This document shows, piece after piece, positions 5,793 through 9,911 of a DNA stretch of 38,091 nucleotides; the first letter of the stretch is position 1, and the number at the start of each line of letters is the position of its first letter. The stretch covers positions 1-38,091 of the forward strand of contig JAZOSE010000118.1 in assembly GCA_045656965.1 (NCBI GenBank), written 5' to 3'. A program made the position numbers and the translations under genes. The DNA is from Eubacteriales bacterium. GTDB lineage: Bacteria; Bacillota; Clostridia; Oscillospirales; CAG-272. The notes beneath the pieces were generated by a model, which saw only the letters and a program-made list of their open reading frames with translations, was not told the origin of the DNA and ran no database searches.

Positions 5793-6431
5793 ATGAAAAG
5801 CGAGTGGGAAATGAGAGAGCTTCTCATCGGTAATACCATACGTTTGATTGCTAAGGGCGGATTTGAAAGTGCTACCACGCGTGCCATTACCCGTGTTGAG
5901 AGCGAGCTTCCCGACATGAAGCTAAACGATGTGTACATATACCGCCTTTTCGGAAGCAAGGAAAATCTTTACCACGCAGCTTTTGAAGATCTGGACAAGG
6001 AGCTTGTTCGTAGCTTAAGCCTTTGTATCGAGGATATCGGCGGCTTTTACGGCAACGTGAAGGAAAAGCTTTATAAGCTTTTTGTAAGAACGTGGCGCTT
6101 TGTTTTGGGCAACGAGGACCGTTGCCGCTGTTATATCAGATATTACTACTCCGTTTATTTCCGCGGTGAATCCTTGCGCCAGCACAATCTGCTTTTTGAT
6201 AGGATCATTGCAGTATTTATGCCGCTTTTTAAGGAAGAGGCAGACGTAAGAAGCATTATGCACAGCGTTTTGACAACGCTTCTCGACTTTGCTGTTCGCG
6301 TGTATAACGGCGACCTTGAGGATAGCGACGTCAACGCGCCTCACGTATTCAACGTCCTTTACTGCGCAATGGTAACTTATTTTAAAGACGGTGTGTTAAC
6401 AAAAGGCGAGGAAGAATCGAGGGTCATATAG
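5793..6431 (+). CDS. TetR/AcrR-family transcriptional regulator
   Basis: N-terminal HTH: LIAKGGFESATTRAITRVESELPDMKLNDVYIYRLFGSKENLYHAAF. All-helical C-terminal part. RBS AAGGGGAAGGA. Confidence 0.85.
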   Translation: MKSEWEMRELLIGNTIRLIAKGGFESATTRAITRVESELPDMKLNDVYIYRLFGSKENLYHAAFEDLDKELVRSLSLCIEDIGGFYGNVKEKLYKLFVRTWRFVLGNEDRCRCYIRYYYSVYFRGESLRQHNLLFDRIIAVFMPLFKEEADVRSIMHSVLTTLLDFAVRVYNGDLEDSDVNAPHVFNVLYCAMVTYFKDGVLTKGEEESRVI

Positions 6432-6450
6432 AAAAATGAGGTAGCTTCCT

Positions 6451-6720
6451 TTGAATGACAACGTGAAAAAAAGAATCATTGAAACGCATTTAAGCTTTAA
6501 TACCAACACCTGCATTTGCTGTGGCGAGGAAATTCCCGAGGGCATACTTGTTTGTCCGGCGTGCGAGCGTGGGGAAGTGCCCTTTGCTTGCCAGCTTTGT
6601 GGAGCGCCTTTGCTTTGCGATGAGCAGATGTGCTCTGAGTGTCAAGCCCGTTGCTCGAAAAAAGGAAGCGGCAACAACAAGAACAAACGCTTTGCATGGT
6701 TTGCAAAGCAAAAGAGGTAA
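6451..6720 (+). CDS. Small Cys-rich (multi zinc-ribbon) protein with a basic tail, function unknown
   Basis: The 89-aa product carries several Cys pairs (CICC, CPAC, CQLC, CSEC) and ends in NKNKRFAWFAKQKR. TTG start with GAGG upstream; the start is uncertain. Confidence 0.6.
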   Translation: MNDNVKKRIIETHLSFNTNTCICCGEEIPEGILVCPACERGEVPFACQLCGAPLLCDEQMCSECQARCSKKGSGNNKNKRFAWFAKQKR

Positions 6721-6723
6721 ATT

Positions 6724-7476: not shown

Positions 7477-7545
7477 ATTACTTAGTTCTTTACGCAAAAG
7501 GCGTATCGATATTCGTCAACAAAATACTTATAGGAGGTAAAACAA

Positions 7546-9387
7546 ATGACGAATTCTTCTAACAAGAGAAGACTGATTAGCAGTGCTATTGCACTCCTTG
7601 TATGCTTTTCTATGCTTCTCGGCACCACGTTCGCATGGTTTACGGATTCCGTAAACAGCGGTGTGAACCAGATTCAGTCCGGTAATCTTGACGTAGAGCT
7701 CTGGCACAGCAGCTATATGTCCTCTGCGGCAAGCTCACAGTGGGGCTTAGGCTTCGGCTATTCCGAGGCTAACGGCGAAAAGGTTGATCAGAACACTCAG
7801 CTTTTCTTGAGTGCTGACGATCAGACCCCCATTCTTTGGGAGCCCGGCGCAACGGCTGTTGAGAACTTCCGCATCACCAACGAGGGCACGCTTGCTTTGA
7901 AGTTCCTCTTCAAGCTTCAGGTCGCAAACGCAACCAAGACCGTTGACGGTAAGGACCTTTCCGACATCATTATGCTTTATATCGACAAGATCACCTATGC
8001 CGATAACGGTGTTCCTATGGGCAACAGCATCGTATCCGGCGATCCTCTTGGCGATGGCTACGTGATCGAGGGCGAGCTTCTTCCCGGAGAGAACTACGAT
8101 TTCTGGGTAGGACTTGAGTGGATCCCCACCGAGTTCGACAACGACTACAACGTTGATGGCGGTCACGCGCTTGACGTTGCCGTTGCTCTCGTTGCAACGC
8201 AGCTGAGCTACGAGCAAGACGGCTACAACGGCGATAGCTACGACGCGGGTGCAGAGTATCCTGAAATTCCCGCAATCCCCAGCAAGTGGAACGGCGGCGT
8301 AGATCTTGATTGGTACGATCCCGAGGCTGATACCTACACGCTTGACAGCGCGGAGGCTCTTGCAGGACTTGCGCTTCTTGTTGACGGCTCGAGCAACTCC
8401 TCGACTTACGACGCAGAACTCGGCAATCTTCCCGTATCCTTTGAAGGCAAAACGGTATACCTCAACAACGACGTTGACCTTTATGCAGAGGATGAAAACG
8501 GCAACCGTATCACCTTCGATCCTATCGGCGACGATGCTCCCTTTACGGGCGTATTCGACGGTCAGGGACACACCATCTCCGGTCTTTACCAGAGCGGTTG
8601 GGATCTCGGCTATGAGTGGGGCATTTACGGCTCTATCGGTCTTTTCGGTGAGATCAAGGACGCAACCATTAAGAACGTAACCGTTAGCGGCGCGCTCCTC
8701 GAGATTGAGGGCGGCGACCTTGGCGGTATTTGCGGTAGCGCAACGGGCACCTGCGTTTTTGAGAACGTAACCGTTGAGAACTCTCAGTTTGGTACCTATA
8801 ATAACGGCAACGGCGGTATCATCGGTTGGTCCGGTGCGGGCGACTACACCTTCAAGAACGTTACCATTGCCGAGGACGTTGTTTTAGCGGGTCTTTGGGG
8901 CTCCTTTGACAGCTCTATCGGTGGCGTTGTCGGTCAGGCAGAGCCCGGTGCTTCCTACACCTTTGAGAACGTAGACGTGGCTTGCCGCATTGACGCTTAC
9001 AACGACTGCACCGCTTCCTACGACTACTACAACTACCGTATGTGCGGTATGCTCATCGGTCGTATGGAGGAAACCGTTGCAACCGAAAACGGCAACTATC
9101 CCGATCCCAGCAAATACAACCTTTCCTTTAAGAATGTTACGGTTACCTACGGTGAGTGGGCAGACTACCACTACTGCCGCGCTGAGGGCGCTCGCGCTAA
9201 GCGCGTGGAGGCAGGTATGGGCTACGGCGGCGTAGATGCTAATTACGATCACAGCGTTTGCACCGTGCATCATATGGAGTGCATTCCCTTCAACCAGATC
9301 TTTGGTGGCGATCAGTACGCCGTTCACGGCCTCGTTTCCTACGATCCCGACAACATCACCATTATCTACAACAACGATTTTCAGTAA
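7546..9387 (+). CDS. Secreted protein with a SipW-cognate signal peptide and TasA/camelysin-like N-domain, fused to a beta-helix-like C-domain
   Basis: LGTTFAWFTDSVNSGVNQIQSGNLDVEL parallels TasA (GGGTWAAFNDIKSKDATFASGTLDL). PGATAVENFRITNEGTLALKF parallels TasA (PGDKLTKDFQFENNGSLAIK). The C-terminal half has FTGVFDGQGHTISGL and five (F/I)(K/E)NV(T/D)V repeats. Confidence 0.8.
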   Translation: MTNSSNKRRLISSAIALLVCFSMLLGTTFAWFTDSVNSGVNQIQSGNLDVELWHSSYMSSAASSQWGLGFGYSEANGEKVDQNTQLFLSADDQTPILWEPGATAVENFRITNEGTLALKFLFKLQVANATKTVDGKDLSDIIMLYIDKITYADNGVPMGNSIVSGDPLGDGYVIEGELLPGENYDFWVGLEWIPTEFDNDYNVDGGHALDVAVALVATQLSYEQDGYNGDSYDAGAEYPEIPAIPSKWNGGVDLDWYDPEADTYTLDSAEALAGLALLVDGSSNSSTYDAELGNLPVSFEGKTVYLNNDVDLYAEDENGNRITFDPIGDDAPFTGVFDGQGHTISGLYQSGWDLGYEWGIYGSIGLFGEIKDATIKNVTVSGALLEIEGGDLGGICGSATGTCVFENVTVENSQFGTYNNGNGGIIGWSGAGDYTFKNVTIAEDVVLAGLWGSFDSSIGGVVGQAEPGASYTFENVDVACRIDAYNDCTASYDYYNYRMCGMLIGRMEETVATENGNYPDPSKYNLSFKNVTVTYGEWADYHYCRAEGARAKRVEAGMGYGGVDANYDHSVCTVHHMECIPFNQIFGGDQYAVHGLVSYDPDNITIIYNNDFQ

Positions 9388-9422
9388 GTCTTAAGAGTAT
9401 GAAGTAAAAGGAGGTAAACGCC

Positions 9423-9911
9423 TTGAAGAAGAAAATAGCAAAAGACTCGTCTAGCAAGGCGTTTGCCCACCTTGTTCTTTGCTCTTTGTTTTGCATTTTA
9501 ATTTGTGTTGCCTTGCTTTCAACAGGCACCTATGCGTGGTTTTCCGACGGCATCCAAAGCTCAAAAAGCACGTTTCAAACGTCGGGTAGCTGTCTTCTTT
9601 CTGTTTCCGTATACAAGGACGGTGCGGAAGAAGCTACTGCAAGCGTGGGTAGCAATGCCGTGTTAAACGGTCAAGGCACTTATACGGTCACTGTGACACT
9701 TCCTTTGGGAAGCGCATCAGGATATCTCGTTCTTAAGACGGCAGACGGTGAATATTTCGTCGACTGCTTGGAAAGAAGCGACGCCGAGGATCAAGTGCTC
9801 TCCTTTACGCTGAATATTCAGGAAGATAAGGACGTTACTCTTGAGGCGTATTGGGGTATTTATTTCGGCGAAAGCCACGTAGAAAACGGTGGCGTTTTGA
9901 ATATAGAGTAG
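9423..9911 (+). CDS. Small secreted protein with a SipW-cognate signal peptide (TasA/TapA-like minor subunit candidate)
   Basis: The N-terminus has a TM segment, then STGTYAWFSDGIQSSKSTFQTSG, the same AxFxD...SG pattern as the large protein. TTG start with RBS AAGGAGG. Confidence 0.7.
   Translation: MKKKIAKDSSSKAFAHLVLCSLFCILICVALLSTGTYAWFSDGIQSSKSTFQTSGSCLLSVSVYKDGAEEATASVGSNAVLNGQGTYTVTVTLPLGSASGYLVLKTADGEYFVDCLERSDAEDQVLSFTLNIQEDKDVTLEAYWGIYFGESHVENGGVLNIE

Follow-up and report, generated by a model that had tools for sequence, protein, structure and literature searches.

Organization of the locus

The 38,091-nucleotide (nt) contig JAZOSE010000118.1 of assembly GCA_045656965.1 (the whole of which is hereafter called the window) comes from an uncultured ruminant-gut Clostridia bacterium. 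We analyzed a cluster of five co-directional open reading frames (ORFs) at positions 5793-9911, which encode a TetR-like protein, a zinc-ribbon protein, a SipW-type signal peptidase and two secreted proteins, together with a recombinase gene and an invertible promoter segment upstream of them. We propose that the cluster is an operon under phase-variable control that encodes a cell-surface structure, probably a TasA-type fibre. The operon comprises the following features (protein lengths in amino acids, aa).

5793-6431 (+), TetR-like gene, 212 aa
6451-6720 (+), zinc-ribbon gene, 89 aa
6724-7476 (+), signal peptidase gene, 250 aa, TTG start
7546-9387 (+), large secreted-protein gene, 613 aa
9423-9911 (+), small secreted-protein gene, 162 aa, TTG start
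9923-9948 (+), bidirectional intrinsic terminator at the operon end, 11-12 bp stem with 5 G-C pairs and T-runs on both strands

The five ORFs, the gaps between them (19, 3, 69 and 35 nt) and the strong terminator had been described in an earlier sequence-only reading of this DNA, and all were recovered at these positions by ORF listing and a hairpin scan. Each of the five start codons is preceded, at a distance of 6-9 nt, by a GGAGG/GAGG-type Shine-Dalgarno sequence. The terminator count of the region equals the shuffled expectation, and two further terminator-like matches on the + strand inside the operon both fall within conserved ORFs. The five-gene order is kept in two contigs of the same species (L001 and L002; related loci are numbered in this way throughout), with 97-98% protein identity, and also in L003, from a species with approximately 70% identity, in which the zinc-ribbon gene had been overlooked by the gene caller. 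All five genes would be carried on one transcript. A search of RNA sequencing runs for the locus found no run containing it. The exact 613-aa protein was sought in an assembly index, which held no record of it, and close relatives stood in for it.

An invertible promoter upstream of the operon

The region between the recombinase gene and the operon contains the elements of a site-specific inversion switch, as follows.

4368-5207 (+), tyrosine recombinase gene, candidate invertase, 279 aa (Phage_integrase, E=1.4e-23; Phage_int_SAM_1)
5215-5236 (-), terminator-like hairpin between the recombinase stop codon and the left repeats, 9-bp stem with a T-run
5237-5257, outer left inverted repeat, a third copy of the recombination site, 90% complementary to 5544-5564
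5291-5311, inner left inverted repeat, 21 nt, 95% complementary to 5544-5564, core ACATAAC-GTCTG-TTATGT
5312-5543, invertible segment, reversed in L001, L002 and L003
5381-5431, symmetric, bidirectional terminator-like hairpin inside the segment (hairpin analysis)
5491-5519 (+), extended -10 promoter TTGCTT-17 nt-(TG)c-TATAAT facing the operon
5544-5564, right inverted repeat (repeat pairing and inverted contigs)

An invertible promoter had been suspected here, and natural variants bear this out: the upstream switch is real, and both of its orientations exist in nature. In L001, L002 and L003, the segment 5291-5564 aligns in reverse, with both flanks aligning forward. In addition, opposite-strand junctions between flank and segment were found at the repeats in Logan contigs of five gut metagenomes (X1, X3, X4, X7 and X9). 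These junctions are 5293->5561 in X1, 5296->5558 in X7, 5257->5543 and 5335->5544 in X3 and X4, and 5335->5544 in X9. According to the crossover points on metagenome contigs, the inner and outer left repeat copies are both used in the window's species; therefore, more than two switch configurations would arise. A third recombination-site copy is also common in other loci (L005, L035, L038, L042, L045 and L048), where it lies 30-54 nt away from one main repeat.

The same module recurs in all 12 related loci tested, each of which has a recombinase homologue followed by repeats with the core ACATAAY-N5/6-RTTATGT, 206-291 nt apart. The central spacers of these repeats vary between loci yet agree between both arms of each locus, and the internal hairpin recurs in several of the 12. 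The recombinase itself is XerA/XerC/XerD-like and scores under the equivalog cut-offs; its homologues, with 49-70% identity, lie upstream of related operons in 16 loci.

Promoter scoring identified 5491-5519 as the sole strong promoter within the segment, and because it points at the operon, the window represents the ON orientation. One extended -10 promoter near one segment end was found in 13 of 13 segments (the window plus the 12 loci); in 10 it is directed away from the operon (OFF), and in the remaining three, namely those of the window, L011 and L076, toward it (ON). Switch orientation would control transcription of the operon, and in the OFF orientation the hairpin at 5215-5236 would end the leftward transcripts of this promoter.

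The SipW-type signal peptidase

The 250-aa peptidase matches the SipW model NF046067 with E=1.4e-20 (73.7 bits, cut-off 190) and TIGR02228 with E=1.9e-11. The latter model had been suggested as a check on the SipW assignment; the match is significant, although its score of 44.1 bits stays under the cut-off of 51.85. Judged by these profiles, the protein is a divergent relative of the endoplasmic reticulum (ER)/SipW type and not an equivalog. The catalytic triad of SipW consists of Ser47, His87 and Asp106 (PMC8767453). The window peptidase contains the catalytic SDSM (Ser57) and LTHKI motifs, and the Ser and His motifs are kept in 21 aligned clade members. A search of PDB sequences with the peptidase returned chance-level matches only.

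In about 25 related loci, the peptidase gene lies directly upstream of TasA-like genes, and in the window the next two genes both carry the SipW-cognate motif. The proposal of a SipW-type peptidase dedicated to two cognate substrates, both encoded next to it, is therefore upheld by the hidden Markov model (HMM) matches, the catalytic motifs and the similar N-termini of the substrates. Both signal peptides would be cleaved by the peptidase of the operon.

The window peptidase ends in a charged coiled-coil C-terminal tail of approximately 60 aa. Many clade peptidases carry long C-terminal extensions that start after the second membrane segment, giving proteins of 546-616 aa versus about 190-250 aa (L004:6111-7961, L080:6206-7975, L015:6198-7964, L026:6218-7954, L018:3625-5265 and L012:509-2164).

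Domain architecture of the 613-aa protein

The large secreted protein can be divided into four parts.

7546-7635 (+), SipW-type signal peptide, residues 1-30, predicted cleavage TFA|WF
7636-7695 (+), post-cleavage segment, residues 31-50, WFTDSVNSGVNQIQSGNLDV, candidate donor strand
7696-8265 (+), TasA/camelysin-like beta-sandwich, residues ~51-240 (Foldseek match 8aur_A)
8266-9387 (+), GLUG-like right-handed beta-helix, 370 aa, residues 241-613, predicted local distance difference test (pLDDT) score mostly >90

Its N-terminus carries the motif ...GTTFAWFTDSVNSGVNQIQSGNLDVEL, and by analogy with TasA the signal peptide would be cut at TFA|WF. The TIGR04088 model for the SipW-cognate signal scores 25.7 bits, above its cut-off of 19. 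Peptidase_M73 (PF12389), another of the checks proposed beforehand, also passes (26.3 bits, gathering score 22.5), over residues 7-52 only; these correspond to profile positions 3-47 of 196, that is, the signal and the N-terminal strand. Searched separately, the body of the N-terminal domain reached a sub-threshold 14.9 bits (E=0.024, profile positions 59-105).

An AlphaFold2 model built with 49 homologues has a mean pLDDT of 84.7 and consists of a signal helix, a low-confidence stretch (pLDDT <50 at residues 28-42 of the monomer model), a beta-sandwich reaching to about residue 225, a linker, and a right-handed beta-helix with a helical cap. When the model was compared with 350,542 PDB chains by Foldseek, 8aur_A, a TasA fibre, came out as the best match overall (target template modelling (TM) score 0.44, E=1.9e-4, probability 1.0). 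The predicted N-terminal domain thus resembles TasA. The size of the protein had been overstated: it is about 2.3-2.5 times that of TasA, not three times. A search of PDB sequences with the profile of the 613-aa family found none.

Column conservation is 0.74 for residues 31-50, 0.75 for the C-terminal domain (C-domain) and 0.42 for the rest of the N-terminal domain. Since residues 31-50 are conserved yet disordered in the monomer model, they fit a donor strand of the TasA type. In TasA itself, the stretch from residue 28 to 38, flexible as long as the protein is monomeric, is inserted into the next subunit, and conservation is highest at the interface between protomers (PMC9674648, PMC10151520); residues 31-50 of the 613-aa protein parallel TasA residues 28-46 (PMC9674648).

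The second-best PDB match of the model is 3n6z, the beta-helix of BACOVA_03286 (a Bacteroides ovatus 'putative IgA1 protease'), which aligns with the C-domain (E=1e-3, target TM 0.39). Among Pfam and NCBIfam models, no family was assigned to this domain, with only a sub-threshold match to Glug (13.4 bits, gathering score 20.5). Its C-terminal half (residues ~440-613), rich in conserved Cys, His and aromatic (Tyr) residues, gave no match.

The 162-aa protein

The second secreted protein has the following predicted organization.

9423-9911 (+), 162-aa protein with a SipW-type signal, a disordered N-terminal segment and a compact beta-sandwich of ~105 aa (AlphaFold2 model)

It contains the motif ...TGTYAWFSDGIQSSKSTFQTSG, and its N-terminus aligns with that of the 613-aa protein (BLASTP E=4e-7). 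The motifs TFAWFTD and TYAWFSD, which the sequence-only reading had pointed out in the large and small protein, respectively, are present in the ORF translations, and within TYAWFSD the residues A38, W39 and F40 are invariant in the 162-aa family. The claim that both substrates carry the SipW-cognate signal holds at the TIGR04088 threshold for the large protein, and for the small one the score of 18.0 bits narrowly misses the cut-off of 19.

In the AlphaFold2 model (pLDDT 81.9), a signal helix is followed by a disordered segment at residues 35-52 and then by the sandwich. A fold search against the PDB gave no significant match; the best had E=0.023, and the matches were jelly-roll and beta-sandwich folds (haemagglutinin, C1q/TNF and carbohydrate-binding modules). 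With no significant PDB fold match, an assignment of the protein as TapA-like by structure was dropped. TapA consists of a complete small sandwich and a donor-like N-terminal strand (PMC10151520), and the predicted model resembles it in this layout, a resemblance and not demonstrated homology. The protein has 52 homologues of about 162 aa.

The TetR-like and zinc-ribbon genes

A regulator and a zinc-ribbon protein had been proposed as built-in members of the operon. Both genes are present and match the corresponding HMMs, with scores under the gathering cut-offs. TetR_N scores 21.7 bits on the 212-aa protein (gathering score 24). Full-length homologues of this protein (E~1e-37; L014, L037 and L076) reach 36.7-41.7 bits, above the gathering score, and it is therefore taken as a divergent member of the TetR family. 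Searching PDB sequences with it gave chance-level matches only and no TetR. The gene is the first after the switch in L003 and L076, and L011 has an ORF with a weak TetR_N match at that place.

The 89-aa protein contains four CxxC pairs and gives weak matches to double zinc ribbon (DZR; 17.7 bits, gathering score 27.3) and Zn_Ribbon_1. The core of its first ribbon, CIxCGxxIPEGxxVCxxCE, recurs in small ORFs adjoining sipW or the switch in L003, L046, L048, L054 and L081. The two proteins may both have regulatory roles.

Compared with L001:1261-1536 and L002:2170-2445, the zinc-ribbon gene of the window (6451-6720) differs by a 1-nt indel (caagCccgttg in the window, caag-ccgttg in the contigs), which shifts the frame of the last ~24 codons. 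Either the window contains a frameshift or sequencing error, or the tail of the zinc-ribbon protein is dispensable. In L001 and L002, the zinc-ribbon stop codon overlaps the TTG start of the peptidase gene (TTGA), which suggests translational coupling. Another protein with an N-terminal zinc ribbon (534 aa, window 2222-3826, -) has its gene immediately upstream of that of the recombinase, with a syntenic counterpart of 541 aa in L003.

Distribution of related loci and of the C-domain

More than 2271 homologues of about 600 aa were found for the large protein. Among the 120 listed, none has a functional name; four are named, all of them 'hypothetical protein', and all organism labels are Clostridia or Clostridiales metagenome-assembled genomes (MAGs). 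We surveyed related loci in 80 GTDB genomes, mostly ruminant-gut MAGs (sheep, goat, deer and yak). A typical locus consists of a peptidase gene followed by genes for one to four proteins with SipW-type signals, whose N-termini occur in at least three variants (GTTFAWFTDS, GSTFALFTSE and GGTLAYLQDEDS). Several loci encode two to four TasA-like paralogues (L017, L054 and L011 each have several), and these vary in length and, where tested, in the C-terminal region. Elements found repeatedly, though not at every locus, are the recombinase switch and the genes for the TetR-like and zinc-ribbon proteins.

The C-domain alone is represented by 408 representative clusters at E<=1e-30 and by 3412 at E<=1e-3, in host proteins ranging from <200 aa (fragments) to 5345 aa. 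These hosts include Bacteroidota lipoproteins (Alistipes, Bacteroidaceae and Barnesiella) that carry DUF6562 at the N-terminus, a Clostridia protein with a dockerin, and a 3395-aa protein with BspA-type leucine-rich repeats (LRRs). The identity between the C-domain and its Bacteroidota copies is 55-65% over about 320 residues; since this is high for cross-phylum identity, it suggests lateral spread together with strong functional constraint.

Copies in Bacteroidota MAGs were observed in L057, L059-L061, L064, L067-L073, L082 and L083, where the C-domain matches the middle of lipoproteins of 900-1250 aa. In these, the lipobox Cys falls near position 17-20, and a Thr-Arg pair near 46-47 is almost invariant. 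In L070 there is a weak match to the FimD tip adhesin (E=5.8e-4, far under the cut-off). The Bacteroidota relatives may represent type V pilus-like adhesins. ORF listing of four of these loci showed no obvious fimbrial neighbour genes, a PDB sequence search with the N-termini of the Bacteroidota relatives found none, and a literature search on DUF6562 found none.

Proposed mechanism and alternative explanations

With a probability of roughly 60%, we interpret the locus as a phase-variable operon for a cell-surface structure that is assembled as a TasA-type fibre. In this model, the recombinase would invert the ~250-bp segment bounded by ACATAAC-N5-TTATGT repeats, and in the ON orientation the invertible promoter would transcribe the TetR-like, zinc-ribbon, peptidase and two substrate genes as one unit. 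The peptidase would then cut both signal peptides at A|WF within the motif A|WF(T/S)D. According to PMC10269814, an aromatic residue (phenylalanine) at P2' makes the TasA site poor for ordinary signal peptidase; with aromatic residues just past the cut, a dedicated peptidase is expected to be needed. The mature 613-aa protein would expose its conserved flexible N-terminal strand on the TasA-like beta-sandwich and, by analogy with TasA and BsaA, this strand would insert into the next subunit by donor-strand exchange, so that the resulting fibre would display one beta-helix domain per subunit. The beta-helix would be the working end, either an adhesin or a glycan-binding or glycan-cleaving module acting on a gut ligand. 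The 162-aa protein would have a TapA-like role, giving the first strand and thereby starting or anchoring the fibre. The gene content, the motifs, the fold similarity, the inversion in nature and the conservation of the module were observed; co-transcription, dependence of the cleavage on this peptidase, polymerization of the 613-aa protein, the initiator role of the 162-aa protein and the functions of the beta-helix, TetR-like and zinc-ribbon proteins are the predicted parts of this scheme.

Several observations weigh against this interpretation. No single sample is shown with both orientations of the same strain. The peptidase is under both curated cut-offs (NF046067 and TIGR02228), and the position of Asp106 (GDN) is occupied by Thr (YGTNT) in the window and by Thr or Ile across the clade. 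The alignment with B. subtilis SipW is approximate at Asp106; an Asp 5-6 residues past the GDN position is conserved across the clade. Archaeal homologues rely on the second Asp. The structural match to TasA is moderate, with a target TM of only 0.44, and likeness to the TasA sequence past the signal region is sub-threshold. A 370-aa domain on each subunit might block packing in the manner of TasA. The 162-aa protein lacks a detectable TapA or TasA fold, and it occurs only in the closest relatives, apart from a weak 230-aa match in L017, so that it is not a general part of the cassette.

The main rival explanation, which we regard as possible if somewhat doubtful, concerns export only: the TasA-like part would serve to export a monomeric beta-helix adhesin or polysaccharide-active enzyme into the medium or hold it on the cell surface, and the 162-aa protein would be an unrelated co-secreted accessory. 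The moderate TasA likeness and the missing fold match of the small protein are readily accommodated in this way. So is the behaviour of the C-domain, which greatly exceeds the TasA-like body in conservation (0.75 vs 0.42), occurs in unlike architectures (Bacteroidota lipoproteins, the dockerin-bearing protein and giant LRR proteins), and has many aromatic, acidic, His and Cys residues that are invariant, as expected of an enzyme or lectin. What export alone leaves unexplained is why the post-cleavage strand should be conserved though predicted to be disordered. Moreover, several TasA-like paralogues behind one peptidase suggest co-assembly, and the characterized relatives, namely TasA, CalY, BsaA and the archaeal bundling pili, all polymerize (PMC9674648, PMC9245690, bioRxiv 10.1101/2024.11.04.621531), which favours the fibre.

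Another alternative questions the gating role of the switch and arises from two elements in the 5' leader.

5647-5666 (+), conserved palindrome CTTGTAGCATTTGCTACAAG, candidate operator or RNA hairpin, invariant in the window, L002 and L003
5744-5772 (+), second promoter-like site ATGACT-17-TATAAT, outside the invertible segment, 10/12 consensus

Here, the fixed site at 5744-5772 would be the main driver of the operon under control of the TetR-like protein, for which the leader palindrome could be the operator, and the invertible promoter would modulate the level of expression or serve the recombinase. The second site is kept in L002 and could give switch-independent expression, a further point against the phase-variable interpretation. 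It is missing from L003 and has no counterpart elsewhere, whereas the internal promoter is present in 13 of 13 segments; in addition, promoter-like sites are no more numerous in the region than expected from shuffling, which means that the second one may be due to chance, and the conserved terminator hairpin in the segment shields the operon from upstream read-through. We consider this alternative improbable. The leader between the switch and the TetR-like gene is strain-variable (window 5665-5727; L002:1215-1520), and in some contigs 61 leader nt are replaced by 105 other letters. In L002 the conserved palindrome, CTTGTAGCA(A/T)(A/T)TGCTACAA, is duplicated.

Finally, that the products belong to the spore surface and not to vegetative cells, as might be supposed because TasA was first described as spore-associated, B. 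subtilis SipW is required for TasA incorporation into spores (PMC8767453) and sporulation-type genes lie nearby (Coat_F, 13418-13870; MecA, 13920-14501), is very improbable, given that the promoter is an extended -10 promoter of the sigma-A type, that neither a motif for a sporulation sigma factor nor a sporulation regulator is linked to the operon, and that the flanking genes are housekeeping genes syntenic in relatives, not a spore-coat cluster.

Flanking elements

A gene for tRNA-Gly(CCC) is located downstream of the operon on the opposite strand (10446-10519, -). It is followed by three tandem units of ~160 nt that are 72-89% alike (window 9930-10519, -). Two of the three units close with the 20 final nt of the tRNA, GATTCCCGTCATCTGCTCCA, copied exactly; in the third, which adjoins the operon terminator, this end has diverged, and after all of them comes a terminator hairpin. 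ARAGORN and Rfam detected only the one true tRNA here, the units matched no Rfam family, and the predicted folding of a single unit is not superior to that of shuffled sequence (z=-1.26). The units may be tRNA-derived repeats or small RNAs. We also considered that the recombinase gene and the operon form an island integrated at tRNA-Gly. This idea was rejected, for the tRNA 3'-end sequence is confined to the downstream units, with no copy ahead of the recombinase gene, and the syntenic flanks oppose it further.

Farther downstream, the window encodes a 626-aa protein with BspA-type LRRs (17839-19719, +; LRR_5, E=2.4e-85), likely a surface protein. The 3395-aa relative of the C-domain combines such repeats with the beta-helix.

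Comparison with known systems

The arrangement had been thought to have no described equivalent. This does not hold, since the sipW-bsaABCRSD operon of Clostridium perfringens is already peptidase-first and multi-substrate with built-in regulators (PMC7395162; bioRxiv 10.1101/2024.11.04.621531). Both are Clostridia operons in which the gene for a SipW-type peptidase precedes those of its substrates, and both specify more than one SipW-dependent secreted protein, in C. perfringens the TasA-like BsaA and BsaB and the large 70 kDa multidomain BsaC. The large substrate there has a von Willebrand A domain, whereas here a TasA-like domain is fused to a beta-helix. The in-operon regulators are a two-component system in C. 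perfringens and, putatively, the TetR-like and zinc-ribbon proteins here. Expression in C. perfringens is bimodal (ON/OFF) through the two-component system and PilA2, compared with the predicted control by DNA inversion at the present locus, to which no type IV pilus genes are linked. More generally, BsaA/TasA relatives are widespread, and paralogues often share an operon, often with signal peptidase genes (bioRxiv 10.1101/2024.11.04.621531).

The operon also shares an ER-type peptidase and cognate signals of the form A|(A/W)F(N/T)D...SG(T/N)LD with tapA-sipW-tasA of B. subtilis and sipW-tasA/calY of B. cereus (PMC9674648, PMC10151520, PMC4292775), the last of these sources describing the sipW-tasA region of B. 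cereus. Like Bacillus TasA, the 613-aa protein is predicted to be a beta-sandwich subunit with a flexible N-terminal strand, and like TapA, the second, smaller protein is predicted to combine a similar N-terminal strand with a complete small beta-sandwich. In B. cereus, sipW comes first in the sipW-tasA order, a further earlier case of a peptidase-first arrangement. The present locus differs from the Bacillus systems in its gene order and has no SinR/SinI control. Its large subunit, unlike TasA, carries the extra 370-aa domain and shows only sub-threshold likeness past the N-terminus; its small protein has no detectable TapA fold; and its peptidase, unlike Bacillus SipW, lacks the GDN aspartate in the approximate alignment.

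Promoter inversion by tyrosine recombinases is known from fimS of E. coli (FimB/FimE), from the cwpV and flagellar switches of C. difficile (RecV) and from gut 'invertons'. The present switch shares with them short inverted repeats, a promoter segment of ~250 bp, an adjoining recombinase gene, a surface-structure target and the occurrence of both orientations in nature. It differs from them in that its target is a SipW/TasA-type operon, that a third repeat copy is common, and that the module and the C-domain gene have been kept together in many lineages of uncultured Clostridia.

The C-domain shares a right-handed beta-helix with coils of the form xGGhhGxxx...NhTh with BACOVA_03286 (3n6z) and the GLUG domains (Pfam Glug and Peptidase_M26_N), and domains of the GLUG type are likewise found in surface proteins of gut Bacillota and Bacteroidota. 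It differs from them in that the structural match is moderate, Glug is sub-threshold and residues ~440-613 are unmatched.

Literature searches returned, among the papers listed, none on an inversion switch for a SipW/TasA/camelysin-type system. Three features are without counterpart in the literature searched: the recombinase promoter switch, the fusion of a TasA-like domain to a beta-helix, and the pairing of TetR-like and zinc-ribbon genes.

Implications

Studies of SipW/TasA-type matrix fibres have dealt with Bacillus and, of late, also with C. perfringens. The present locus reveals a large unnamed family of such systems in uncultured Clostridia of animal guts. It also offers a concrete example of phase-variable surface architecture in gut Bacillota, in which inversion switches are far less studied than in Bacteroides. 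Because the C-domain is 55-65% identical between Bacillota and Bacteroidota, a common gut ligand or substrate is suggested. If the fibre model is true, the system would be a natural scaffold for the display of large folded domains.

A wider and more tentative extension, which we hold to be rather unlikely, is that gut Clostridia use TasA-like donor-strand fibres as phase-variable scaffolds with interchangeable cargo, each served by a SipW-type peptidase and a co-inherited recombinase switch, with the beta-helix as the commonest cargo, one that also occurs in possible type V pilus tip adhesins of Bacteroidota. In that case, a single adhesive or enzymatic module would be shared by two phyla of the same habitat, each presenting it on donor-strand fibres unrelated to those of the other.

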